From contig OZ252100.1 of assembly GCA_965248435.1 (NCBI GenBank), positions 2,688,001 to 2,752,000 on the forward strand: a stretch of 64,000 nucleotides of DNA, in the 5' to 3' direction. This document shows, piece after piece, positions 1,262-35,529 of the stretch. A program made the translations under genes and the position numbers. The stretch is from Candidatus Latescibacterota bacterium. GTDB taxonomy: Bacteria; Latescibacterota; UBA2968; GCA-2709665. Every line of letters starts with the position of its first letter. The first letter of the stretch is position 1. The notes under the pieces were generated by a model. It saw only the letters and a program-made list of their open reading frames with translations, searched no databases and was not told where the DNA came from.

Positions 1262-3910
1262 TCAATAACCCAGTTCTCGGAGACGGTCCTGGGACCCCTG
1301 GTGTTCAGAGTCAATTACCGACTCATAAATGGCCTTTGCTTGGTCCACCTTCCCCAACATTTCAAATGCCTTTCCGATGTTGAAATACTCATTCTGATAG
1401 ATCGTATCTGTTGCATCTCCCTCGACCGCAATTCGTATTGCCCTGTAGGCCTCATCCATATCCCCCAGACGCCGATGGATCTTTGCAAGCACGAACCACG
1501 CTTCATATTCTTCGACATCGATGGAGACCAGCTTACCCATCACATCGCCTGCTTCTTTCAATCTACCCAGCTGTTCAAGGACTGTCCCCAAATTGAGGTA
1601 CGCCAGAACAAAGTCAGGTTGAATCTCTATGGCCTTTTGAAAGACAGCGATCGCATCGTCGTATTTATTCCCTTCGAGAAATACTAAGCCCAAGTTAAAA
1701 AATACCAAGGACTTGACGCTTTCCGGCACCCGATCGGCGACCTCTCGATAGATTTCCTCGGCGCGGTCTAGTTGTCCCGTTTCTTTCATCAGGGACCCCA
1801 TGCGATGGAGATCTCCTAAGGATTCTGGAACGATCTCCAGCACACGTTCCATATGGTAGGCAGCCTCTTGATACCTGCCTGAATTCTCGAACCGTCGCGC
1901 CAAACCCCGATGGGCGGGCATGAAGTAAGGATGGAGACCGAGTGCTTTCTGGTAGAACGAAGTCGCATCCTCGTATCGGCCCAGATTTTCGTAGCTCGTT
2001 GCAATATCTGTATAGAGCCCGGCACTGGGCGGCCCAAGCCGAAGCGCGGCACTAAGATGATTCAATGCCAGATCATACTGCTTCGACTCCAGGTAGAGGG
2101 CTCCCGTTACCTTGTGTAGCGAAACGTTCTGGGGATCTACCTCCAACCCTTTTCTATAGGCCTCAAGGGCCCACTCCTTCTTGTCCGCCTTTTCATAGAG
2201 AAACCCCTTGTGAAGGTTCCGATAAACGCTCGAGCCAGAAAAAAAAGGATCGCCTCGATAGCTGCTGTCCGGACGAATGACATACAACAGTGGGGCACCC
2301 TGAGTCCGGACCGTATGTATGATTTCGCCCGGAAGAACGGTATGTCCCTCCAGGCGGGTTGTAATGAGATATAGGTCTGCTTGGAAGGGATTTTCGACGT
2401 ACTCAAACCCCCGTGGGTCAAGCAAATGCTGCGTGCTAGAGGCACCACTGGCGATACGGGGCAGCCTTGTCAGCCCCAGATCCCGAATGAGATCGGCATA
2501 GTGGGTATCGATCCATCGAACACCCTGCTTATAGCTATTATCCCAGTAATCCGTCTCATAACGGGTCCACGCCTTTTCGATACCTCCGGCAAAGAGATGG
2601 TTGAAATACACGTATTGATTCGGGTGCATCGAAACCATCTCCCAAAGGGTTAGCAATAGACAACTTCCAGAGAGTAGTGCGGTGCCATAGCCCTTCCAGC
2701 CCTTGAGTCTACGAACACACTCACGGGTTCCAATCGCGCTGAGAACCGCGAGCGGCGGAACAACAAATAGGATGTGACGAATGCCGTCATAGAGCGGTGT
2801 CTGGGCTACCACGACGTAGCATATTGGAAACACTGCGCCGAAAACCAAGACTCCCCGCTCGAGGGCGGGCACGCTGCTGGCCTTCCAGGGCCAGGTCCAC
2901 CAGGCAGCAATCGCGCCCAGAACAAGGCCGATCAGCAGAAATTCGGGAAGTGTGATGAGCAACCATTTGGGGGCGTAGTACCAGGGAAACTCACTGGCTT
3001 CTACAAATCGTCCCTCAAAAAAAACCGGAGAGACGGTCGGAAAGCCTGAAAAGACCCTTAGCGCCTTCCAGGGGTGAACCAGCGGATTGATCTGGGCCCA
3101 GGGCCAGAACGCGAGCATAACAACGTAGGCGCCCAGGAAAATAGACACCGTCTGAATAGCGAATGATGCGCCCAGATCCAGGAATGCCCTCCTGCTCTTC
3201 AGGAGGCCGGCCTGGACATATTTGATTATGAAAGATACGAGCAGAGGTACCCACAGAATCACTCCACCGATACGAATCCCCATAGTGATTCCGATCGCCA
3301 AGGCGGTCTTGCAGATCCAGCTGCGAGGCAGGTCGGGTAGACGGCCGACGCTCCGGATCAGAAAATAGAGACTCCACAAATAGGAAACCGCGAACGGGAT
3401 GTCCTTATGATTGTTGAACGCGTGGCCATAATATCTTGGGGTCAGCATCAGAAACAACGCTGCCAGGCATCCGGCCCATGGTCCACCCAGATACCCGCCA
3501 AGTTTGTAGGCGGCAACGACACCCAGTAGCCCGACTCCGGCGTTGCACAGGTGGCGGGTGGGGAAAACGTTTAAAGGGGAGATCTTGCAGGCGATTGCCG
3601 TAAGCCCATCGTACCACCCTCCGTAGAGCCAGACATTTACCCGGCTGAAAGCCGCCCGGTCCTTAAATAGACTGGTATACCAGTTGAGAACGTAGAGTCC
3701 ATAGTCAACGTGGGAATGTTCGTCGGGTGTGATCCCGTAGTGGGTGTAGGTCATCAGGATCACAATTCCATAAGCCAACACCAGGAGTGTAAAACACCCC
3801 TGCCACAGCGGTATCTTATAGCCGAGGAAGTTAATCCGCATTTGGTCGTCGAGATGGAAATTCAGCATAGTCGCACAGACTTTAGAAATTTCAGATCTGA
3901 ATCGAGCCAC
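1262..3910 (-). CDS. GT-C (PMT/ArnT-like) membrane glycosyltransferase with C-terminal TPR array
   Basis: TPDE acidic motif after the first TM helix, many TM segments, NNHKDIPF motif, TPR-like repeats in the C-terminal ~300 aa. Confidence 0.8.
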   Translation of the reverse strand: MARFRSEISKVCATMLNFHLDDQMRINFLGYKIPLWQGCFTLLVLAYGIVILMTYTHYGITPDEHSHVDYGLYVLNWYTSLFKDRAAFSRVNVWLYGGWYDGLTAIACKISPLNVFPTRHLCNAGVGLLGVVAAYKLGGYLGGPWAGCLAALFLMLTPRYYGHAFNNHKDIPFAVSYLWSLYFLIRSVGRLPDLPRSWICKTALAIGITMGIRIGGVILWVPLLVSFIIKYVQAGLLKSRRAFLDLGASFAIQTVSIFLGAYVVMLAFWPWAQINPLVHPWKALRVFSGFPTVSPVFFEGRFVEASEFPWYYAPKWLLITLPEFLLIGLVLGAIAAWWTWPWKASSVPALERGVLVFGAVFPICYVVVAQTPLYDGIRHILFVVPPLAVLSAIGTRECVRRLKGWKGYGTALLSGSCLLLTLWEMVSMHPNQYVYFNHLFAGGIEKAWTRYETDYWDNSYKQGVRWIDTHYADLIRDLGLTRLPRIASGASSTQHLLDPRGFEYVENPFQADLYLITTRLEGHTVLPGEIIHTVRTQGAPLLYVIRPDSSYRGDPFFSGSSVYRNLHKGFLYEKADKKEWALEAYRKGLEVDPQNVSLHKVTGALYLESKQYDLALNHLSAALRLGPPSAGLYTDIATSYENLGRYEDATSFYQKALGLHPYFMPAHRGLARRFENSGRYQEAAYHMERVLEIVPESLGDLHRMGSLMKETGQLDRAEEIYREVADRVPESVKSLVFFNLGLVFLEGNKYDDAIAVFQKAIEIQPDFVLAYLNLGTVLEQLGRLKEAGDVMGKLVSIDVEEYEAWFVLAKIHRRLGDMDEAYRAIRIAVEGDATDTIYQNEYFNIGKAFEMLGKVDQAKAIYESVIDSEHQGSQDRLRELGY

Positions 3911-23010: not shown

Positions 23011-23460
23011 TTATTGTCCGCTCTGCTTCTCGATTCTGTCTTCAAGCCTGGACTGCAGCGGAAGAAACACAGCATACGCCCAAACGATCGCATAGAAGAG
23101 CGTAACGGTCGCCGTCGCGATTCCGGGCCCTAGGGCATCTACTTGGTCTGAAAGTTTAGGGAACTGAGCAATATTCATGATACCGACCAGGAACCCGATC
23201 CAGCCGGCACCGATGATATAGGTCTTGGCGCGCCCCCATCCACGAGCCGCGTGTCTCAATTCTTCCACGGTCAGCTGCGCTGATAAGACGGCTTTCAGCA
23301 TCGTTGGAATACTCACGTGGGCAATGAGAAGGGATCCAATCGTAATGAAGAGAACAACGATAACGGAAGGGACATCAACAAAGTTGATGAGATGTCCGCC
23401 ATTAAATATCCCCATGACGATGACAACCATCGTTAGGATCAGCCCTATTACACCCTTCAT
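23011..23460 (-). CDS. Short MotA/TolQ/ExbB-family membrane protein (MotA-like)
   Basis: FVDVPSVIVV after TM1, GWIGFLVGI, LGPGIATATVTLFYA, FLPLQSRL; 149 aa; AAGGAGG RBS. Confidence 0.7.
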   Translation of the reverse strand: MKGVIGLILTMVVIVMGIFNGGHLINFVDVPSVIVVLFITIGSLLIAHVSIPTMLKAVLSAQLTVEELRHAARGWGRAKTYIIGAGWIGFLVGIMNIAQFPKLSDQVDALGPGIATATVTLFYAIVWAYAVFLPLQSRLEDRIEKQSGQ

Positions 23461-30204: not shown

Positions 30205-30759
30205 GTGGAAACACAAGCCGATCTTACGCTGATTGTTGCCTGCCAAAACGGAGACCCCAGAGCCTTCCAGAAAGTCTTCGACATCTACAAGGACAGGATC
30301 TACGCGCTTTGCAGGCACATGGCGGGAAACCCCGACGACGCTGAGGACCTGGCTCAGGAGGTCTTCATCTCCGCGTTCAAGAACATCGGCACCTTCAGGG
30401 CCGAGGCCTCCTTCGGCACCTGGCTCTACCGTATCGGCGCCAACCGATGCCTCACCGAGCTCAGAAAACGCACCCCAACCTTTCGGTCTTTCGAAGCCCT
30501 GAGTGACGTGGAGAAGTTGCCTCACGCACCCAACCCGGAAGACCTCGTCGTGCGCAAGGAACTCTCTGACCGAGTGGAGGCCGCCGTGGCCGCGCTGCCC
30601 GAAAACCTGCGGCTCCTCTTTGTGCTCGGTACGCTCGAAGGCATGCGCTACAAGGAAATCGCCGAAATCGTCGACTGTTCTGAAGACGCCGTGAAGATGC
30701 GCATCCATCGCGCGCGTAAGCGGATCCGCGACACCCTCAAGCCTTACTTAGAGAATTGA
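30205..30759 (+). CDS. ECF RNA polymerase sigma factor
   Basis: DAEDLAQEVF, FGTWLYRI, region 4 YKEIAEI...VKMRIHRAR. Confidence 0.93.
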   Translation: METQADLTLIVACQNGDPRAFQKVFDIYKDRIYALCRHMAGNPDDAEDLAQEVFISAFKNIGTFRAEASFGTWLYRIGANRCLTELRKRTPTFRSFEALSDVEKLPHAPNPEDLVVRKELSDRVEAAVAALPENLRLLFVLGTLEGMRYKEIAEIVDCSEDAVKMRIHRARKRIRDTLKPYLEN

Positions 30760-30773
30760 AGGGAACCCAACCG

Positions 30774-31202
30774 ATGAACTGCTCTACCTGTGAACGCATC
30801 CTGTCGGCCTACATCGACGACGAACTCACGAACGAGGCGCGTCTCGAAGTGGAAGCCCACTTCGACACCTGCGAGCGCTGCCGCAAGGACTATGAATCCC
30901 ACCTGCTGGCCTGGGAAGCGGCCGGAGGCCTTCGCACGGGATCCGCACCCGAAGGCCTGTGGAGGGCCGTCGAGTCCGAGGTCCAGCAAAAGGGCACAGC
31001 CACCACGACCGAAGAACTGGCGCTCGTTGTCCGTGGCCTGGCAGGGGAGGTGCGCGACCTGAAGCAGGCGGTGGAATCTCTGCGCGCGGACCTGGAATCG
31101 GAACTGACGGAGGCACAGGAAGGCGATTCTGAGCGCGTCCGCCGGTTTCATCAATTGAGAGTCTGGAGCGAAACACCTTCCAGGGTCGAATCCGCAAGAT
31201 AG
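30774..31202 (+). CDS. Soluble zinc-finger (zf-HC2/ZAS) anti-sigma factor with coiled-coil tail
   Basis: MNC, LSAYIDDEL, HFDTCERC (HxxxCxxC); no TM helix; heptad-like LAGEVRDLKQAVESLRADL. Confidence 0.85.
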   Translation: MNCSTCERILSAYIDDELTNEARLEVEAHFDTCERCRKDYESHLLAWEAAGGLRTGSAPEGLWRAVESEVQQKGTATTTEELALVVRGLAGEVRDLKQAVESLRADLESELTEAQEGDSERVRRFHQLRVWSETPSRVESAR

Positions 31203-31259: not shown

Positions 31260-32294
31260 ATGGCAGAATCGAAAACAAAGGAAGAGGCTAGCGGGGACGA
31301 GACTCCAAAGGAGCGGATTGTCACTTACGACTTCAAACACCCTGCCCGGGTCTCAAAAGATCAAATGAGGACCCTGGAGAATCTGCATTCCAACCTGGCG
31401 CGGATGATGTCCTCCTCCTTTTCCACGTTCCATCGCTCCATGGTGGATGTAGACATCAAGTTCGTAGACCAGACAACCTACGCAGAATTCATCATGTGGC
31501 TCTCCAATCCCTCTTGTTCATACACGTTTGTGCTCGAGCCCCTGGGCGGGCCCGCCATCATCGACATACCAATGGGGATGGTTTCCGCGTTTATCGATCG
31601 TCAGTTCGGGGGGACGGACGATCCGCCGCCCATGCCGCGCGTCGTGACCACCATCGAACGAATCATCATGGCTCAGGTCATCAGAAGAATGATGGCCGAC
31701 CTGGAAGCCACGTGGGAACCGTTGATCAAGACTCAGGTGTCCAATGCGGAGCTGGAGACCAACCCGGAATTCATGCAGGTGGCGGCGCCTGGAGACACGG
31801 TGGTCCTTATTGCATTTGAGGTAAACTTCGCCGAGGTTGACGCTGCAGATCGGAAACCGGGCACGCATCGGATCAGCAGAGGCAACCGGCAGCTTTGGCC
31901 TAAAGATGATGAACGCCAACGAGTGATCAGCCTCTGCTATCCTTACTTCACTCTTGAACCGATAATGAACTATCTGAACGTGCAGACGTGGGCCGGGCGG
32001 GCGGGCGGCAGGCGGGGGCGAGAGGAGACTCGCCAGAAGCGGCTGGAGCAGTTAAGAGGCATCCAAACAGAAATCCGGGTTGATTGGGGCCTGGGTGAAG
32101 CTTCGCCGAAAGAAGTGGCCGACCTCCGTGTCGGAGACACGATCGTTCTGGATACCAGAACCGATGACCCCGGCGTCGTATATGTAGGGGGCCAGCCGAT
32201 CTTCCTTGCCCGTCCGGGCCTCAGCGCCCGGAACCATTACGCGGTTGAATTGCTCCGTTCGCTGAGTCAAGAGGAGGTAAGAGATCATGTCTGA
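31260..32294 (+). CDS. fliM: FliM-like flagellar switch protein
   Basis: YDFKHPARVSKDQMRTL, QTTYAEF, ETNPEF, SLCYPY, C-terminal SPOA (LRVGDTIVLD). Confidence 0.88.
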   Translation: MAESKTKEEASGDETPKERIVTYDFKHPARVSKDQMRTLENLHSNLARMMSSSFSTFHRSMVDVDIKFVDQTTYAEFIMWLSNPSCSYTFVLEPLGGPAIIDIPMGMVSAFIDRQFGGTDDPPPMPRVVTTIERIIMAQVIRRMMADLEATWEPLIKTQVSNAELETNPEFMQVAAPGDTVVLIAFEVNFAEVDAADRKPGTHRISRGNRQLWPKDDERQRVISLCYPYFTLEPIMNYLNVQTWAGRAGGRRGREETRQKRLEQLRGIQTEIRVDWGLGEASPKEVADLRVGDTIVLDTRTDDPGVVYVGGQPIFLARPGLSARNHYAVELLRSLSQEEVRDHV

Positions 32295-32595
32295 GGAAAA
32301 GGACAGAGTCAAGACTCGTGAGGTCGATCCGAGCTGGCCCAGGGATCTGGATGCCCGTCTTCAGCGGCTTGGAAAGGCGGGCTTGGAAGTGTCTGTCGTC
32401 CTGGGTAGTACGAAGCTGCCCATCGAAGAGATCGTAAACGCAGAGCAGGGCACGCTCTTCGAACTGGACCGGATGAGCGGGCAGCCGATGGACATCCTGG
32501 TCAACGGAACGCCGTTCGCGAAGGGAGAAATCGTCATCGTTGGGGACCATTTAGCGGTCCGCATCAATGAGCTTCTCGCGCCCGAAGAGATGTAA
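32287..32595 (+). CDS. fliN: FliN-like SPOA protein
   Basis: LEVSVVLG, ELDRMSGQPMDILVNG, AKGEIV, AVRI. Confidence 0.85.
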   Translation: MSEEKDRVKTREVDPSWPRDLDARLQRLGKAGLEVSVVLGSTKLPIEEIVNAEQGTLFELDRMSGQPMDILVNGTPFAKGEIVIVGDHLAVRINELLAPEEM

Positions 32596-32606
32596 GGAGA
32601 ACACCG

Positions 32607-33611
32607 ATGACCAAAGGAACCGAGACATCTGCCTCAGGTCGAATGCTACAATCAAGCCAGGTTGCAGACATCCCCAAGGGCGCAAAGCCAGCACCCTGGA
32701 AGCCCGCTGTCTTGACAGGCCAGCGGACCTACCCACCCCTCGAGATGCAGCTCGCGCAGCACAAAGAGGCTGCTGAGAAAGCGAGGGAGCCTAAACCTGC
32801 CCGCGAGCGACAGACGGCGCCTCCTGAGCCTCAGGACGGGGGGCCGATTGCTCCGGATGAGTCGATGGAACAGATCGCCGCGCGCAGGCCAATAGACGTA
32901 GCAAGGGCAGTAAGTACGCTGCTGATGCAGGCGGATGGCGAAAGCGCCGGCCTTCCAGCGGACCTGAAAGTTGCGATCCTGATCGTGGGCCTCGGCTCCG
33001 ATCTTTCAGCCGGTGTAATCAAATACCTGGCCGAACCGAAGATATCTCAGATCGCCCGTGCCGTCGCGGAGCTCGAAAGCGTCACCACCCGGCAGAGAGA
33101 CGACGTCTTCGACGAAGTCAAGCATCTGATATCTGGGAATCACCTTCTCCAGGGGGGAACTGCCTTCGCTCGGAACCTACTCGAGAAGGCGCTCGGTGAA
33201 CGGAAGGGACGGGCGATGATGTGGCGGGTGAGCGGAACGACCGAAAGAAAATTCGATTTGTTCCGAAACATCGATCCTGAACAAATCGTGTCCTTCATCG
33301 CGAGGGAACATCCGCAGACGATCGCCCTCATCCTGTCGCAGTTGGATGCGAAACAGGCAGCAGGGGTGCTCAACGGTCTCTCAGAGGAACTTCAGGATGA
33401 CGTGATCCTCCGCATCACCCAGATGGAGACCATTTCTCCCGAGGCGCTCAGTAGACTCGAACAGGGCCTGGCGGAGGACATCCACGCGATTCTGGCGGGT
33501 CAAGTCGAGGTAGGTGGGCAGAAAGCTGCAGCCGAGATTGTAAAGCAGGCGGAAGTCCTGCGCCAAAAAAGAGAGGAATCTCAAAATGCCCACGAAAAGG
33601 AAGGCACCTGA
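32607..33611 (+). CDS. fliG: FliG-like protein (N and M domains, no C domain)
   Basis: KVAILIVGLG (FliG-N), GG..FARNLLEKALG, EHPQTIALILSQL (FliG-M); ends shortly after VGGQKAAAEI. Confidence 0.85.
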   Translation: MTKGTETSASGRMLQSSQVADIPKGAKPAPWKPAVLTGQRTYPPLEMQLAQHKEAAEKAREPKPARERQTAPPEPQDGGPIAPDESMEQIAARRPIDVARAVSTLLMQADGESAGLPADLKVAILIVGLGSDLSAGVIKYLAEPKISQIARAVAELESVTTRQRDDVFDEVKHLISGNHLLQGGTAFARNLLEKALGERKGRAMMWRVSGTTERKFDLFRNIDPEQIVSFIAREHPQTIALILSQLDAKQAAGVLNGLSEELQDDVILRITQMETISPEALSRLEQGLAEDIHAILAGQVEVGGQKAAAEIVKQAEVLRQKREESQNAHEKEGT

Positions 33612-33864
33612 GCCCAGGGCAACGGCGCCCAATCGGGCCGCAGAAGTAGAAATGGACGTGAGCGTGGAACTCGGTCGCGTTCGCGTTCCCCTGGAGCGAC
33701 TCCTGACCTGGAGAGAAGGATCTACACTGGAGCTTTCCAAGGTATCAGGCGATCCAGCCGACGTGCTGGTCAACGGCGAACCGTTTGCCTGGGGCGAAGT
33801 CGTGACCGTTGGTGAAAGTTTTGGCGTTCGGTTAACGAAGATCCTGAACCGGGATGCTGTTTAG
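33586..33864 (+). CDS. fliN: Second FliN-like SPOA protein
   Basis: VSVELGR, GSTLEL, DVLVNG, GEVVTVGESFGVRL. Confidence 0.85.
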   Translation: MPTKRKAPEPRATAPNRAAEVEMDVSVELGRVRVPLERLLTWREGSTLELSKVSGDPADVLVNGEPFAWGEVVTVGESFGVRLTKILNRDAV

Positions 33865-34218
33865 GTGCTCCAACATCGACAGCATCTCCTCGGCTTCCTG
33901 CCTGTGACCAGCGGCCTCCTGATCGGCGCCTGTCTCGTCTACTGCGCCGTCTGGTGGATCCCCCACCCCATGACGATTGCCGATCCTGACTGCAGCATCA
34001 CCTGCTGGGCCTACTGCGCCACGCAGAGCCCTTTCTGGGGCACCCTGACCGCGGTCCTTGCAGCCGGTCTCTGTTTTGGCGGCATCCTGATCCTCCTACG
34101 CAAAGAATACGGTATTGAGACCAGTCTTGTCCTCGGTATCCTCACCCTGCCCACAGGGCTCCTCGCGGTCGTCCCCTTCGCCTTCAACCGCTGGTCGCTC
34201 AGTCACCGAGAGGCCTGA
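33865..34218 (+). CDS. Small membrane protein (about 3 TM), hypothetical
   Basis: GTG directly after the fliN stop; hydrophobic segments; CxxxCxxxC loop. Confidence 0.55.
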   Translation: MLQHRQHLLGFLPVTSGLLIGACLVYCAVWWIPHPMTIADPDCSITCWAYCATQSPFWGTLTAVLAAGLCFGGILILLRKEYGIETSLVLGILTLPTGLLAVVPFAFNRWSLSHREA

Positions 34219-34269
34219 GAGAACCCCGCGTCCGCTCAAGCAAGAATCCCAAAAAGTGATGATGTAATG

Positions 34270-35529
34270 CTATCGGTAGGGTAGCGGCTCTGGGTCCAGC
34301 CATCGACACGCTCTGTCTTTGATCGCCCAGGTCGTGAAGAAGTTTCCCGCTGGAGTGTGGTGTTGATGGCCGATATAGTAACGATCCAGGTAGGTGTCGA
34401 TGTCTGTGTTGAACTGGCTGTACTCTCTAACAAACGCCTCCCGCATATCGATGACTGGAAAATCCCGGTTCTCGAGCCATTCCCGAAAGGACCGGTCGAA
34501 CCTCGGCTTTCCAGCCAGTTCGGCCGCCACATTCCCGCGGCAAAACGAAAGCATGAGCAGAAGCTTCTTGCCGGTTTCCTGAGTCAAGGCTTCGACTCGC
34601 TCCACAACATACCGGGTTGCAAAAAGAGCGGCCTCGGTATGGAGATCAACGATCTGGGCATACAGGTCGCCGTCGGAGCCCTGATCAAGGGACATCCCGA
34701 GGCCAGCGGCTGCAGCTGTGGCCACCTCGTGGAAGGACTTCTGATCTGCTTTTGTGGAGGATTCGGAGGCCTGCATCCTCCGACGCAGGTTTGGAACAGG
34801 TCCGGGGAAGGTGTCAAGATCGACCTCCTCTTCACCCGGCCTGCCCTCCCCCGGCCTGAGGGCTTCGACCTGGGCAACGACCAGCTTCAGCACCGGGTCA
34901 TCCTGGTATGCCTCCCATACAAACTCTGAGTCACAGAGGTCATAAACCGCTTCGGGCGTGCCGCTCGGGTTCTCGACCTCCTCACAGGTGCCCTTGCCGA
35001 GGTCGACCTTCAAGTGCGGGAGCGTAAACCTGGGCACGATGTCCATTCGGATCGATTGCCAGGCGTCCAGGTTGCGGAAATGGTCGTCGTCGAAAATATT
35101 GAGAATGATGTACTCCGCACCTGAATCCATCTCTACCCTGCACATGCGACGATAGGCCTGGTAGACGCTGCACCCCCCAACGCCGTAATTTCGGATGGGC
35201 TCCTGGATGTGTGCAGCGAGGTATTCCTGCCAGGTTTCACCGTCACTGACCTGGTGGCCGTGGGTAAAGCTGTCACCGTAACTGTGGATGCGACACGGTC
35301 GATCCGAAAAATTGACCACGCGCCGTGCTCCGTCCGATTCGTAATTGTAAAACCCTTTCGAACCCTCGATGCTGTTTTCACGCACGCCCGAGGTGTGTAC
35401 CCACCCAAGGTCCGCGTCAAACGCCCTGAAGTCTGACTCTGCCGCTGATCCATTGACGGCAGGCCGCACGAATCGGTCTATCATCTCCCGGCTGGGAACC
35501 AGGGAATCCAAATACGCCTTCCGGTCCAA
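34270..35529 (-). CDS. SGNH/GDSL hydrolase-like protein
   Basis: YGDSFTHG, NYGVGG, HHTPAGN. Confidence 0.7.
   Translation of the reverse strand: MDRKAYLDSLVPSREMIDRFVRPAVNGSAAESDFRAFDADLGWVHTSGVRENSIEGSKGFYNYESDGARRVVNFSDRPCRIHSYGDSFTHGHQVSDGETWQEYLAAHIQEPIRNYGVGGCSVYQAYRRMCRVEMDSGAEYIILNIFDDDHFRNLDAWQSIRMDIVPRFTLPHLKVDLGKGTCEEVENPSGTPEAVYDLCDSEFVWEAYQDDPVLKLVVAQVEALRPGEGRPGEEEVDLDTFPGPVPNLRRRMQASESSTKADQKSFHEVATAAAAGLGMSLDQGSDGDLYAQIVDLHTEAALFATRYVVERVEALTQETGKKLLLMLSFCRGNVAAELAGKPRFDRSFREWLENRDFPVIDMREAFVREYSQFNTDIDTYLDRYYIGHQHHTPAGNFFTTWAIKDRACRWLDPEPLPYR

Follow-up and report, generated by a model that had tools for sequence, protein, structure and literature searches.

What can a FliG protein do when its torque domain is missing and no basal-body genes surround it? 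The question is raised by an open reading frame (ORF) of a Candidatus Latescibacterota bacterium (GenBank assembly GCA_965248435.1), placed on the forward strand at positions 32607 to 33611 of the window, which is the whole stretch of 64,000 nucleotides analysed here (contig OZ252100.1, positions 2,688,001 to 2,752,000). The N-terminal domain of FliG (FliG_N) needs the C-terminal tail of FliF to fold, and this junction ties the motor's cytoplasmic ring (C-ring) to the membrane-supramembrane ring (MS ring). The tail co-folded with FliG_N is reportedly seen in the PDB entries 5TDY and 5WUJ (those of Lynch et al. 2017). An initial annotation, made from the sequence alone, described the ORF as a FliG with a built-in FliF C-terminal helix and no torque domain, released from both the MS ring and the stator and still able to bind FliM. 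The present analysis separates the two features. The FliF-like helix marks an accessory FliG subfamily, named here FliG-ext, most members of which are full-length, and the missing domain is a deletion seen only in the genome of the window. The gene and its parts are placed as follows.

32607..33611, + strand: N-extended FliG paralog of 334 aa, limited to the N and M domains (Pfam, TIGR00207, alignments and AlphaFold2)
32667..32780, + strand: motif A, approximately residues 21-58, conserved in the subfamily, with W31, P33 and L36 invariant (alignments A3 and A5)
32841..32942, + strand: motif B, residues 79-112, a helix-Pro-helix resembling the FliF C-terminal tail, with helices at 87-93 and 95-110 (invariant residues, hhalign, profile search and model confidence)
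32967..33248, + strand: FliG_N domain, residues 121-214 (PF14842, E 1.1e-25)
33276..33518, + strand: FliG_M domain, residues 224-296, which contains EHPQ (234-237) and R269 and is followed by the linker helix and Gly-Gly at 303-304 (PF14841, E 8.7e-31)
33540..33611, + strand: non-homologous 23-aa tail and stop codon (sequence; divergence of the alignment after AAEI)

The start of the ORF is regarded as sound, because AAGGAG lies 8 nt before the ATG and the first residues of the protein are conserved among orthologs. The residues E234, H235, P236, Q237, R269, G303 and G304 occupy invariant or near-invariant columns in the alignments of FliGs, and the shared part of the protein is 51-57% identical to the canonical FliGs of its own and related genomes. 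The initial annotation was right that EHPQ is retained (residues 234-237) and that the C domain (FliG_C), with its torque helix, is absent. Pfam finds no FliG_C (PF01706) in the 334-aa protein, whose residues 1-120 are without any match, and TIGR00207 covers profile positions 10-212 of 338 with 168.9 bits, below its cut-off of 226.7. A six-frame search of the whole genome with PF01706 returned 8 FliG_C matches, none of them inside the window. The protein ends 23 aa past GGQKAAAEI (residues 303-311), close to the 20 or so first estimated. AlphaFold2, supplied with a 78-row alignment, models the 334-aa protein with a mean predicted local distance difference test (pLDDT) of 80.3, and the best Foldseek matches of the model are FliG chains (8umd_B, E 7.9e-08). 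The C-terminal helix of the model (residues 304-332) has nothing to pack against and shows pLDDT values of 56-74.

Motif B lies directly 5' of FliG_N and includes the segment SMEQIAARRPIDVARAVSTLLMQAD (residues 86-110, approximately nt 32862-32936). Its consensus reads P-I-x-P-D/N-E..E-Q-I-A..R-P..A, and P80, I81, E88, A91, P95 and A99 are invariant across the motif-B alignments (A2, A3 and A5). All 80,757 six-frame ORFs of the genome with a length of 40 aa or more were screened with a hidden Markov model (HMM) that represents motif B in 8 subfamily members. Besides the gene itself, the only match was FliF, at residues 542-566 of a 571-aa open frame (E 0.0024, 20.0 bits), and the next one followed at E 1.1. 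The aligned FliF tail of the genome is IAQLISERPEDAAKLIRTMLIEDAA and its counterpart in the 334-aa paralog is MEQIAARRPIDVARAVSTLLMQADG. The motif-B profile (8 sequences) was also compared by hhalign with a profile of 113 FliF tails, taken from 112 of the 120 listed homologs (the full-length ones) and from the genome itself. The two align over 25 columns with a probability of 93.5%, a P-value of 2.2e-7 and a score of 34.2, which is reached by none of 200 column shuffles (mean 9.0, standard deviation 2.0, maximum 17.4); the reversed control scores 15.2. Moreover, a metagenome provides a natural fusion of FliF to FliG (P0363, 817 aa), whose FliF tail stands directly before FliG_N and aligns to motif B. 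The FliF-like helix that had been recognised by eye just before FliG_N is borne out by these comparisons, and at the sequence level its likeness to the FliF tail can be taken as established and as more than chance. Residues 1-125 used as a query for homologs returned only the query itself at E of 0.01 or below, the region being too short for the size of the database; a first scan of genome contigs with the single N-extension found no match, and a protein atlas search with residues 1-125 gave uninformative scores of 0.81 at most.

A role for motif B is suggested by structure prediction. In the AlphaFold2 model its residues 81-110 reach pLDDT values of 95/94/90, against 56-74 for the unpacked C-terminal helix. 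FliG_N (residues 117-216) and motif B (residues 77-116), predicted in trans as a complex, gave an interaction score from aligned errors (ipSAE) of 0.48 (runs 0.49, 0.48 and 0.44), with 0.01 for the best of 3 controls. The partner pLDDT is at least 63, and the runs share at least 70% of their contacts. When this method was calibrated, 58 of 80 solved complexes attained the mark, as did 2 of 110 mismatched pairs; among those that did so with ipSAE values of 0.60 or below were only 7 of the 80 solved complexes and both mismatches. The pass may furthermore reflect likeness to known structures, because complexes of FliF-C with FliG-N have already been solved. According to the excerpt available of one study (PMC8956890), isolated FliG-N is unstable in simulations without FliF-C, which provides a rationale for carrying a copy of the tail in cis. 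Motif B thus likely packs in cis at FliG_N, where the FliF tail normally co-folds.

The same sequence and pLDDT evidence would also suit a displaceable pseudo-ligand: motif B would keep the FliF site occupied, and a signal at motif A or at an upstream domain would dislodge it, so that FliG-ext could dock to the MS ring in a regulated manner. The sensor-like or regulatory domains found in relatives (an FGE-sulfatase domain, a receiver-FliM encoded next door, a PP2C domain) would be in keeping with such a device. Nevertheless, the FliF-like positions of motif B are invariant across the subfamily, and in FliM::motif B::FliG fusions the motif is an internal linker, a better fit to a structural role; a regulated release is considered very unlikely.

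The subfamily was delineated among 14,847 FliG-like matches, obtained by a profile search of 1.84 billion representatives. A narrow motif-B HMM was applied to 155 proteins, namely 7 seeds and the other 148 of the best 150 matches, and detected the motif in 23 of them. A full FliG_C is present in 20 of these 23, and absent from the window copy, P0280 and P0333. P0002-P0005, of 435-461 aa, are the nearest homologs; their alignments extend over 91-94% of the query and take in the N-extension, and each of them has a FliG_C. The domain is likewise present in every further complete FliG-ext gene that was inspected in a genome locus. The initial annotation had seen a single design in the built-in helix and the missing C domain. 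The two are distinct features, since proteins of 412-694 aa that have a full FliG_C share the N-extension.

Upstream of motif B the proteins vary (motif A alone, motif A with an FGE-sulfatase domain, or a FliM domain), while motif B itself is constant. Motif A has a core W-x-P-x-x-L near the N-terminus, is modelled with pLDDT values of 78 and 68 over residues 21-40, and is missing in some members, for example the FliM fusions; its HMM matches no other ORF in the genome (best other match E 0.052). The FGE-sulfatase domain (PF03781, E 2.9e-64) is inserted between motifs A and B of otherwise full-length FliGs at L028:7621-9690 (genome G004) and L018:379-2463 (G005). A FliM middle domain lies upstream of motif B in P0245, P0247 and P0260; the same FliM::FliG Pfam architecture is found in P0264, P0334 and P0342, which the motif-B HMM leaves unscored. 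P0246 is a motif-B member with a C-terminal SpoIIE/PP2C domain. Other fusions encountered in metagenomes are P0366, which joins FliM, DUF4116, FliG_M and FliG_C, and P0385 and P0363, which join a whole FliF to FliG. Taken by their sequences, the members point to an accessory FliG subfamily defined by a FliF-tail peptide fused upstream of FliG_N.

In a quick tree of the N and M columns (motif B excluded, 85 rows hand-chosen among the proteins collected), one branch, with a Shimodaira-Hasegawa-like approximate likelihood ratio of 92 (below the mark of 95), has 25 of the 32 motif-B rows together on the same side; their neighbours are the canonical FliGs of the lineage. The motif-B label changes 7 times on this tree versus a mean of 25.8 in shuffles, and 0 of 500 shuffles are as low. 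A descent of FliG-ext from natural FliF::FliG fusions was considered and rejected: P0385 and P0363 branch among unrelated canonical FliGs and therefore represent parallel events, not ancestors. Among 168 sampled genomes of the phylum the N-extension occurs in 13. FliF is present in 66 of the 168, that is, in 12 of the 13 genomes with FliG-ext versus 54 of the 155 others, a comparison that amounts to no statistical test, as the genomes are related and not independent. The sole FliF-less genome among the 13 is 90% complete and in 930 contigs. FliG-ext is found in flagellated lineages, to which it is read as mostly confined.

The loss of the C domain can be followed at the nucleotide level. Homology to the orthologs stops after residue 311 (AAEI), and the last 23 codons run over GAGAGGAA, the likely ribosome-binding site of the next gene (fliN2), and on into fliN2, of which they cover the initial 26 nt out of frame. 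In the G004 ortholog, a 14-nt spacer separates the stop of fliG from the homologous fliN start. The 23-aa tail is the scar of a deletion that removed FliG_C, and the missing torque domain is a lineage-specific deletion, seen only in the window genome. A single deletion of roughly 125 codons took the C-terminal armadillo domain (ARM_C) together with the torque-helix domain. A common end position of the homologs had been named as a check; the other complete members in the genome loci inspected are full-length, and P0280 and P0333 end elsewhere. An internal deletion seems to have shortened P0280, where the first ARM_C helices and the last strand persist, and P0333 is, by look, frameshifted relative to P0252. 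As P0280, P0333 and the window copy end differently, the homologs share no common end position.

The initial annotation had also considered that homologs might be full-length or the truncation an artefact. Full-length homologs do exist, to the detriment of its proposal; the truncation is a real deletion. An error of assembly or sequencing hiding a full-length gene would agree with the length of the closest homologs, yet it is hardly credible. The start of fliN2, 26 nt ahead of the stop, leaves no space for the approximately 125 missing codons, nor could a frameshifted C domain be fitted in, and no FliG_C-like frame occurs in the window. Besides, a separate Logan short-read contig of 7,747 nt (run X1, depth 36.5) spans 32500-34300 with 0 differences, a check not fully independent since the run is probably the source sample. 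The contigs of runs X5, X6 and X7, from other studies, leave 33511-33746 uncovered. A split gene with its C domain encoded elsewhere was likewise rejected: the stand-alone FliG_C proteins of the genome are closer to canonical FliGs (57%) than to FliG-ext (52%).

The paralog belongs to a gene cassette, the other ORFs of which are listed here with the ORF that follows it. The first gene encodes a sigma factor of the extracytoplasmic function (ECF) type.

30205..30759, + strand: ECF-type sigma factor, first gene of the cassette (Sigma70_r2 2.7e-19, Sigma70_r4_2 4.6e-15, Sigma70_ECF 5.7e-07)
30756..31202, + strand: anti-sigma factor with an N-terminal zf-HC2 domain (Pfam zf-HC2 1.5e-10; 4-nt overlap with the sigma gene; orthologs in the loci of relatives)
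31260..32294, + strand: FliM paralog with the FliM middle domain and FliMN_C (FliM 3.3e-43, FliMN_C 1.4e-13)
32287..32595, + strand: FliN paralog 1 (FliMN_C 4.7e-21)
33586..33864, + strand: FliN paralog 2, with an N-terminus MP.K+.. conserved in orthologs (PF01052, 8.2e-22)
33865..34218, + strand: 117-aa hydrophobic ORF directly after fliN2 (matched by neither Pfam nor NCBIfam)

The order ECF sigma, anti-sigma, FliM (with or without a receiver domain), FliN, FliG-ext and FliN is found in L028 (G004), L049 (G076), L046 (G082) and L031 (a Latescibacterota-labelled metagenome-assembled genome), with orthologs of the sigma factor at the same place. The partial loci L018, L030 and L048 show the same order, and L049 has two modules. 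The sigma and anti-sigma genes are directly upstream in 5 of the 8 loci with enough upstream sequence (the window, L028, L049, L046 and L031). The anti-sigma factor is probably cytoplasmic, as inspection by eye shows no hydrophobic run of a length that could span a membrane. The 117-aa ORF has no counterpart in 9 other loci (blastp), and its membership of the cassette is doubtful. The flanking genes are unrelated (ceramidase-like, YjgF-family and GDSL-like ORFs and an aminotransferase). In the full-text literature, with most subscription journals outside its coverage, no description was found of an N-extended FliG subfamily or of an ECF-FliM-FliN-FliG cassette.

The FliM of the window is without the receiver domain and the N-terminal LSQ.EI peptide that are present in the copies of relatives. 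It is 60% and 57% identical to the two FliM genes of G004 (BLASTP, alignment from query residue 20) and has an insert of about 26 aa, at approximately residues 190-215 (31827-31905), that is absent from both. In G004, a receiver domain is fused to FliM at L028:4733-6226, with an LSQKEIDALL-type peptide between both domains, an arrangement in which a CheY-like domain is tethered to its own target peptide. In G082, a FliG-ext of the FGE type extends over three overlapping frames at approximately 5790-9624 of L047 (G082:C1:6262000-6278000), followed downstream by FliN, a 519-aa FliM-like ORF and a separate FliG C-terminal piece; it looks like a broken or rearranged second cassette. In the window, 7 kb upstream of the cassette and beside an ABC transporter pair, a small ORF on the reverse strand (23011-23460) matches MotA/TolQ/ExbB (PF01618, E 9.8e-07) and is probably unrelated to the cassette.

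The favoured answer, held at slightly better than an even chance, is that the gene retains a function, as a C-deleted member of FliG-ext and an MS-ring-independent partner of FliM and FliN. The copy of the FliF tail would pack in cis on FliG_N, which would then be complete without the MS ring. FliG-ext presumably shares a transcript with a FliM and two FliN paralogs of its own, downstream of the genes for the ECF sigma factor and its soluble anti-sigma factor. With this FliM and these FliN paralogs it would form a switch-like complex independent of the MS ring, accessory to flagellar motility or regulating it, and placed under or upstream of the sigma/anti-sigma pair. The complex is read as accessory or regulatory to the flagellum because the cassette is found almost only in genomes with a canonical flagellum. 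The window copy would still present FliG_M (EHPQ...R) to FliM and would be unable to contact the stators or to stack ARM_C on its neighbour. In this scheme we infer the docking in cis, the independence from FliF and with it the release of the paralog from the MS ring, the binding of FliM and the regulatory role.

Several observations weigh against this answer. The complex prediction of motif B on FliG_N is graded as weak support. The FliF-tail HMM, searched against the 80,757 ORFs, found FliF only and did not list the 334-aa gene at E of 100 or below, the profile being narrow since the tails are nearly identical. A profile search of the PDB matched FliG chains only, with no FliF peptide chain among the matches, and matched the Vibrio FliF-FliG fusion chain from its FliG part only. 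The ECF pair was not found beside 3 of the 8 loci (L047, L051 and L053). A genome of the same genus (G001) is without any FliG. The cassette itself is reduced when compared with those of relatives: FliG_C and the receiver domain and CheY-binding peptide of FliM are gone, and where relatives have two modules and two downstream FliN genes it has one of each.

This reduction is also what would be expected if the cassette were being lost in the lineage and the truncated FliG-ext were a functionless remnant of a recent deletion, an alternative that is possible and yet doubtful. It would account for the FliG_C kept by every other complete FliG-ext examined in genome loci, and for a tail that is an accidental read-through of a spacer and the start of the next gene. 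It is also in line with the 17 of 20 other genomes of the family that gave no FliG match when searched with the 334-aa protein, and with the FliG-ext split over three frames in G082. On the other hand, all six cassette genes are intact, without frameshifts or stops and with tight start/stop coupling. The N and M domains show no signs of decay: among the other 77 aligned FliGs, 26 positions reach a conservation of 85% or more, the window protein retains 25 of these, and the end branch of the window FliG in the N and M tree is not long (0.4 vs a median of 0.5). In near-identical DNA from other runs, the folded part differs by one conservative amino-acid change (I138V) and 1 synonymous change, and the disordered linker by 6 amino-acid changes, counts that are too few for a test.

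Another proposal has the protein act on the canonical motor, as a dominant-negative subunit or a terminator of the rotor. Once the ECF sigma factor is active, it would join canonical C-rings or cap them, or else sequester FliM and FliN, with the consequence that torque is lowered or assembly is blocked. An intact FliG_M (EHPQ...R) combined with the absence of ARM_C and of the C1-6 subdomain would suit such a role, as would the placement in one operon with an ECF sigma factor and the near confinement of the cassette to flagellated genomes (12 of 13). However, the subfamily at large retains FliG_C, which rules such a role out as the function of the family, and FliG-ext adjoins its own FliM and FliN partners; the proposal is judged quite improbable. 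A bolder version of the retained function departs from the rotor altogether. FliG-ext, FliM and FliN would constitute a soluble signalling device that owes its detachment from the MS ring to the built-in FliF tail, reads phosphorylation or the motor state and controls the adjacent ECF sigma factor through the cytoplasmic zf-HC2 anti-sigma factor, thereby coupling chemotaxis-type signals to transcription. The window copy would then be a stripped-down form, blind to CheY and to the stators. This version we regard as unlikely.

Comparison with known systems places the paralog between familiar components. The order of the canonical flagellar genes is fliF-fliG-fliH. The window protein resembles canonical FliG (TIGR00207; 3HJL and 8UMD chain B) in FliG_N, FliG_M, EHPQ...R and the Gly-Gly linker. 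It differs in lacking ARM_C, MFXF and the torque-helix domain, in its additional 120-aa N-extension, in falling below the TIGR00207 cut-off and in being encoded in an ECF-sigma cassette rather than a flagellar operon, its neighbours being ECF sigma, anti-sigma, FliM and FliN, with no basal-body genes. By sequence, motif B aligns to the last 25 or so residues of the FliF tail (a helix, an R-P-E/x-D turn and an amphipathic helix) and likewise adjoins FliG_N, whereas it is joined covalently to the N-terminus of FliG and does not form, as the FliF tail does, the C-terminus of a membrane protein behind its second membrane span. The motif-B protein is soluble and without a YscJ_FliF domain (Pfam).

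Fusions of FliF to FliG, spontaneous or engineered, are described for Salmonella and Vibrio in the portions available of two reports (PMC6079021, PMC10941966). These fusions (including PDB 8Z4D), as well as the natural P0385 and P0363, have the same topology as FliG-ext, a single chain that runs from the FliF tail into FliG_N. They retain the whole FliF ring protein, whereas FliG-ext has only the tail. Borrelia burgdorferi offers a precedent for a second FliG with a specialised role beside one required for assembly (FliG1 and FliG2; PMC7225975, as excerpted). Compared by description only, both Borrelia proteins are full-length, and the excerpt mentions no FliF-like N-extension or ECF cassette.

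The genome of the window also encodes three full-length FliGs, FliF, a canonical FliM and further FliM/FliN-like ORFs. On the reverse strand of L029 (G000:C1:3543000-3549000), fliF (2322-3854) is followed by a fliH-like gene (1458-2315) and a fliI-like gene (176-1516), both named by eye, with no fliG between them. The canonical fliG copies are far from fliF, at 2.55 Mb and 4.87 Mb; two nearly identical full-length ones stand in tandem, about 470 nt apart (G000:C1:2545895-2546914 and 2547386-2548405). There are two other FliG_C ORFs. One, an open frame of 573 aa (G000:C1:31617-33338, + strand), shows an apparent membrane span and is long in its C-terminal part; the other, of 243 aa (G000:C1:2513186-2513917, - strand), starts just past the MFXF position and has an unrelated C-terminal part of about 120 aa. 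An ECF-type sigma factor, recognised by eye, is fused to a C-terminal FliG_C (PF01706) at G000:C1:959277-960143 (- strand) and 5324418-5325200 (+ strand), and FliM-like ORFs lie near these fusions (C1:947549-948109 and C1:956746-956913). The fusions would represent a second link between ECF sigma factors and switch proteins in this genome.

For the family, the absence of a torque domain in the window copy is a lineage-specific deletion and reveals no design principle. A natural FliG family that carries the FliF tail in cis raises the question of whether assemblies of FliG, FliM and FliN may act away from the basal body. The linkage to an ECF sigma/anti-sigma pair, the fusion of a receiver domain to FliM and the fusions with FliM or with a PP2C phosphatase are hints that switch proteins may have been reused for regulation.

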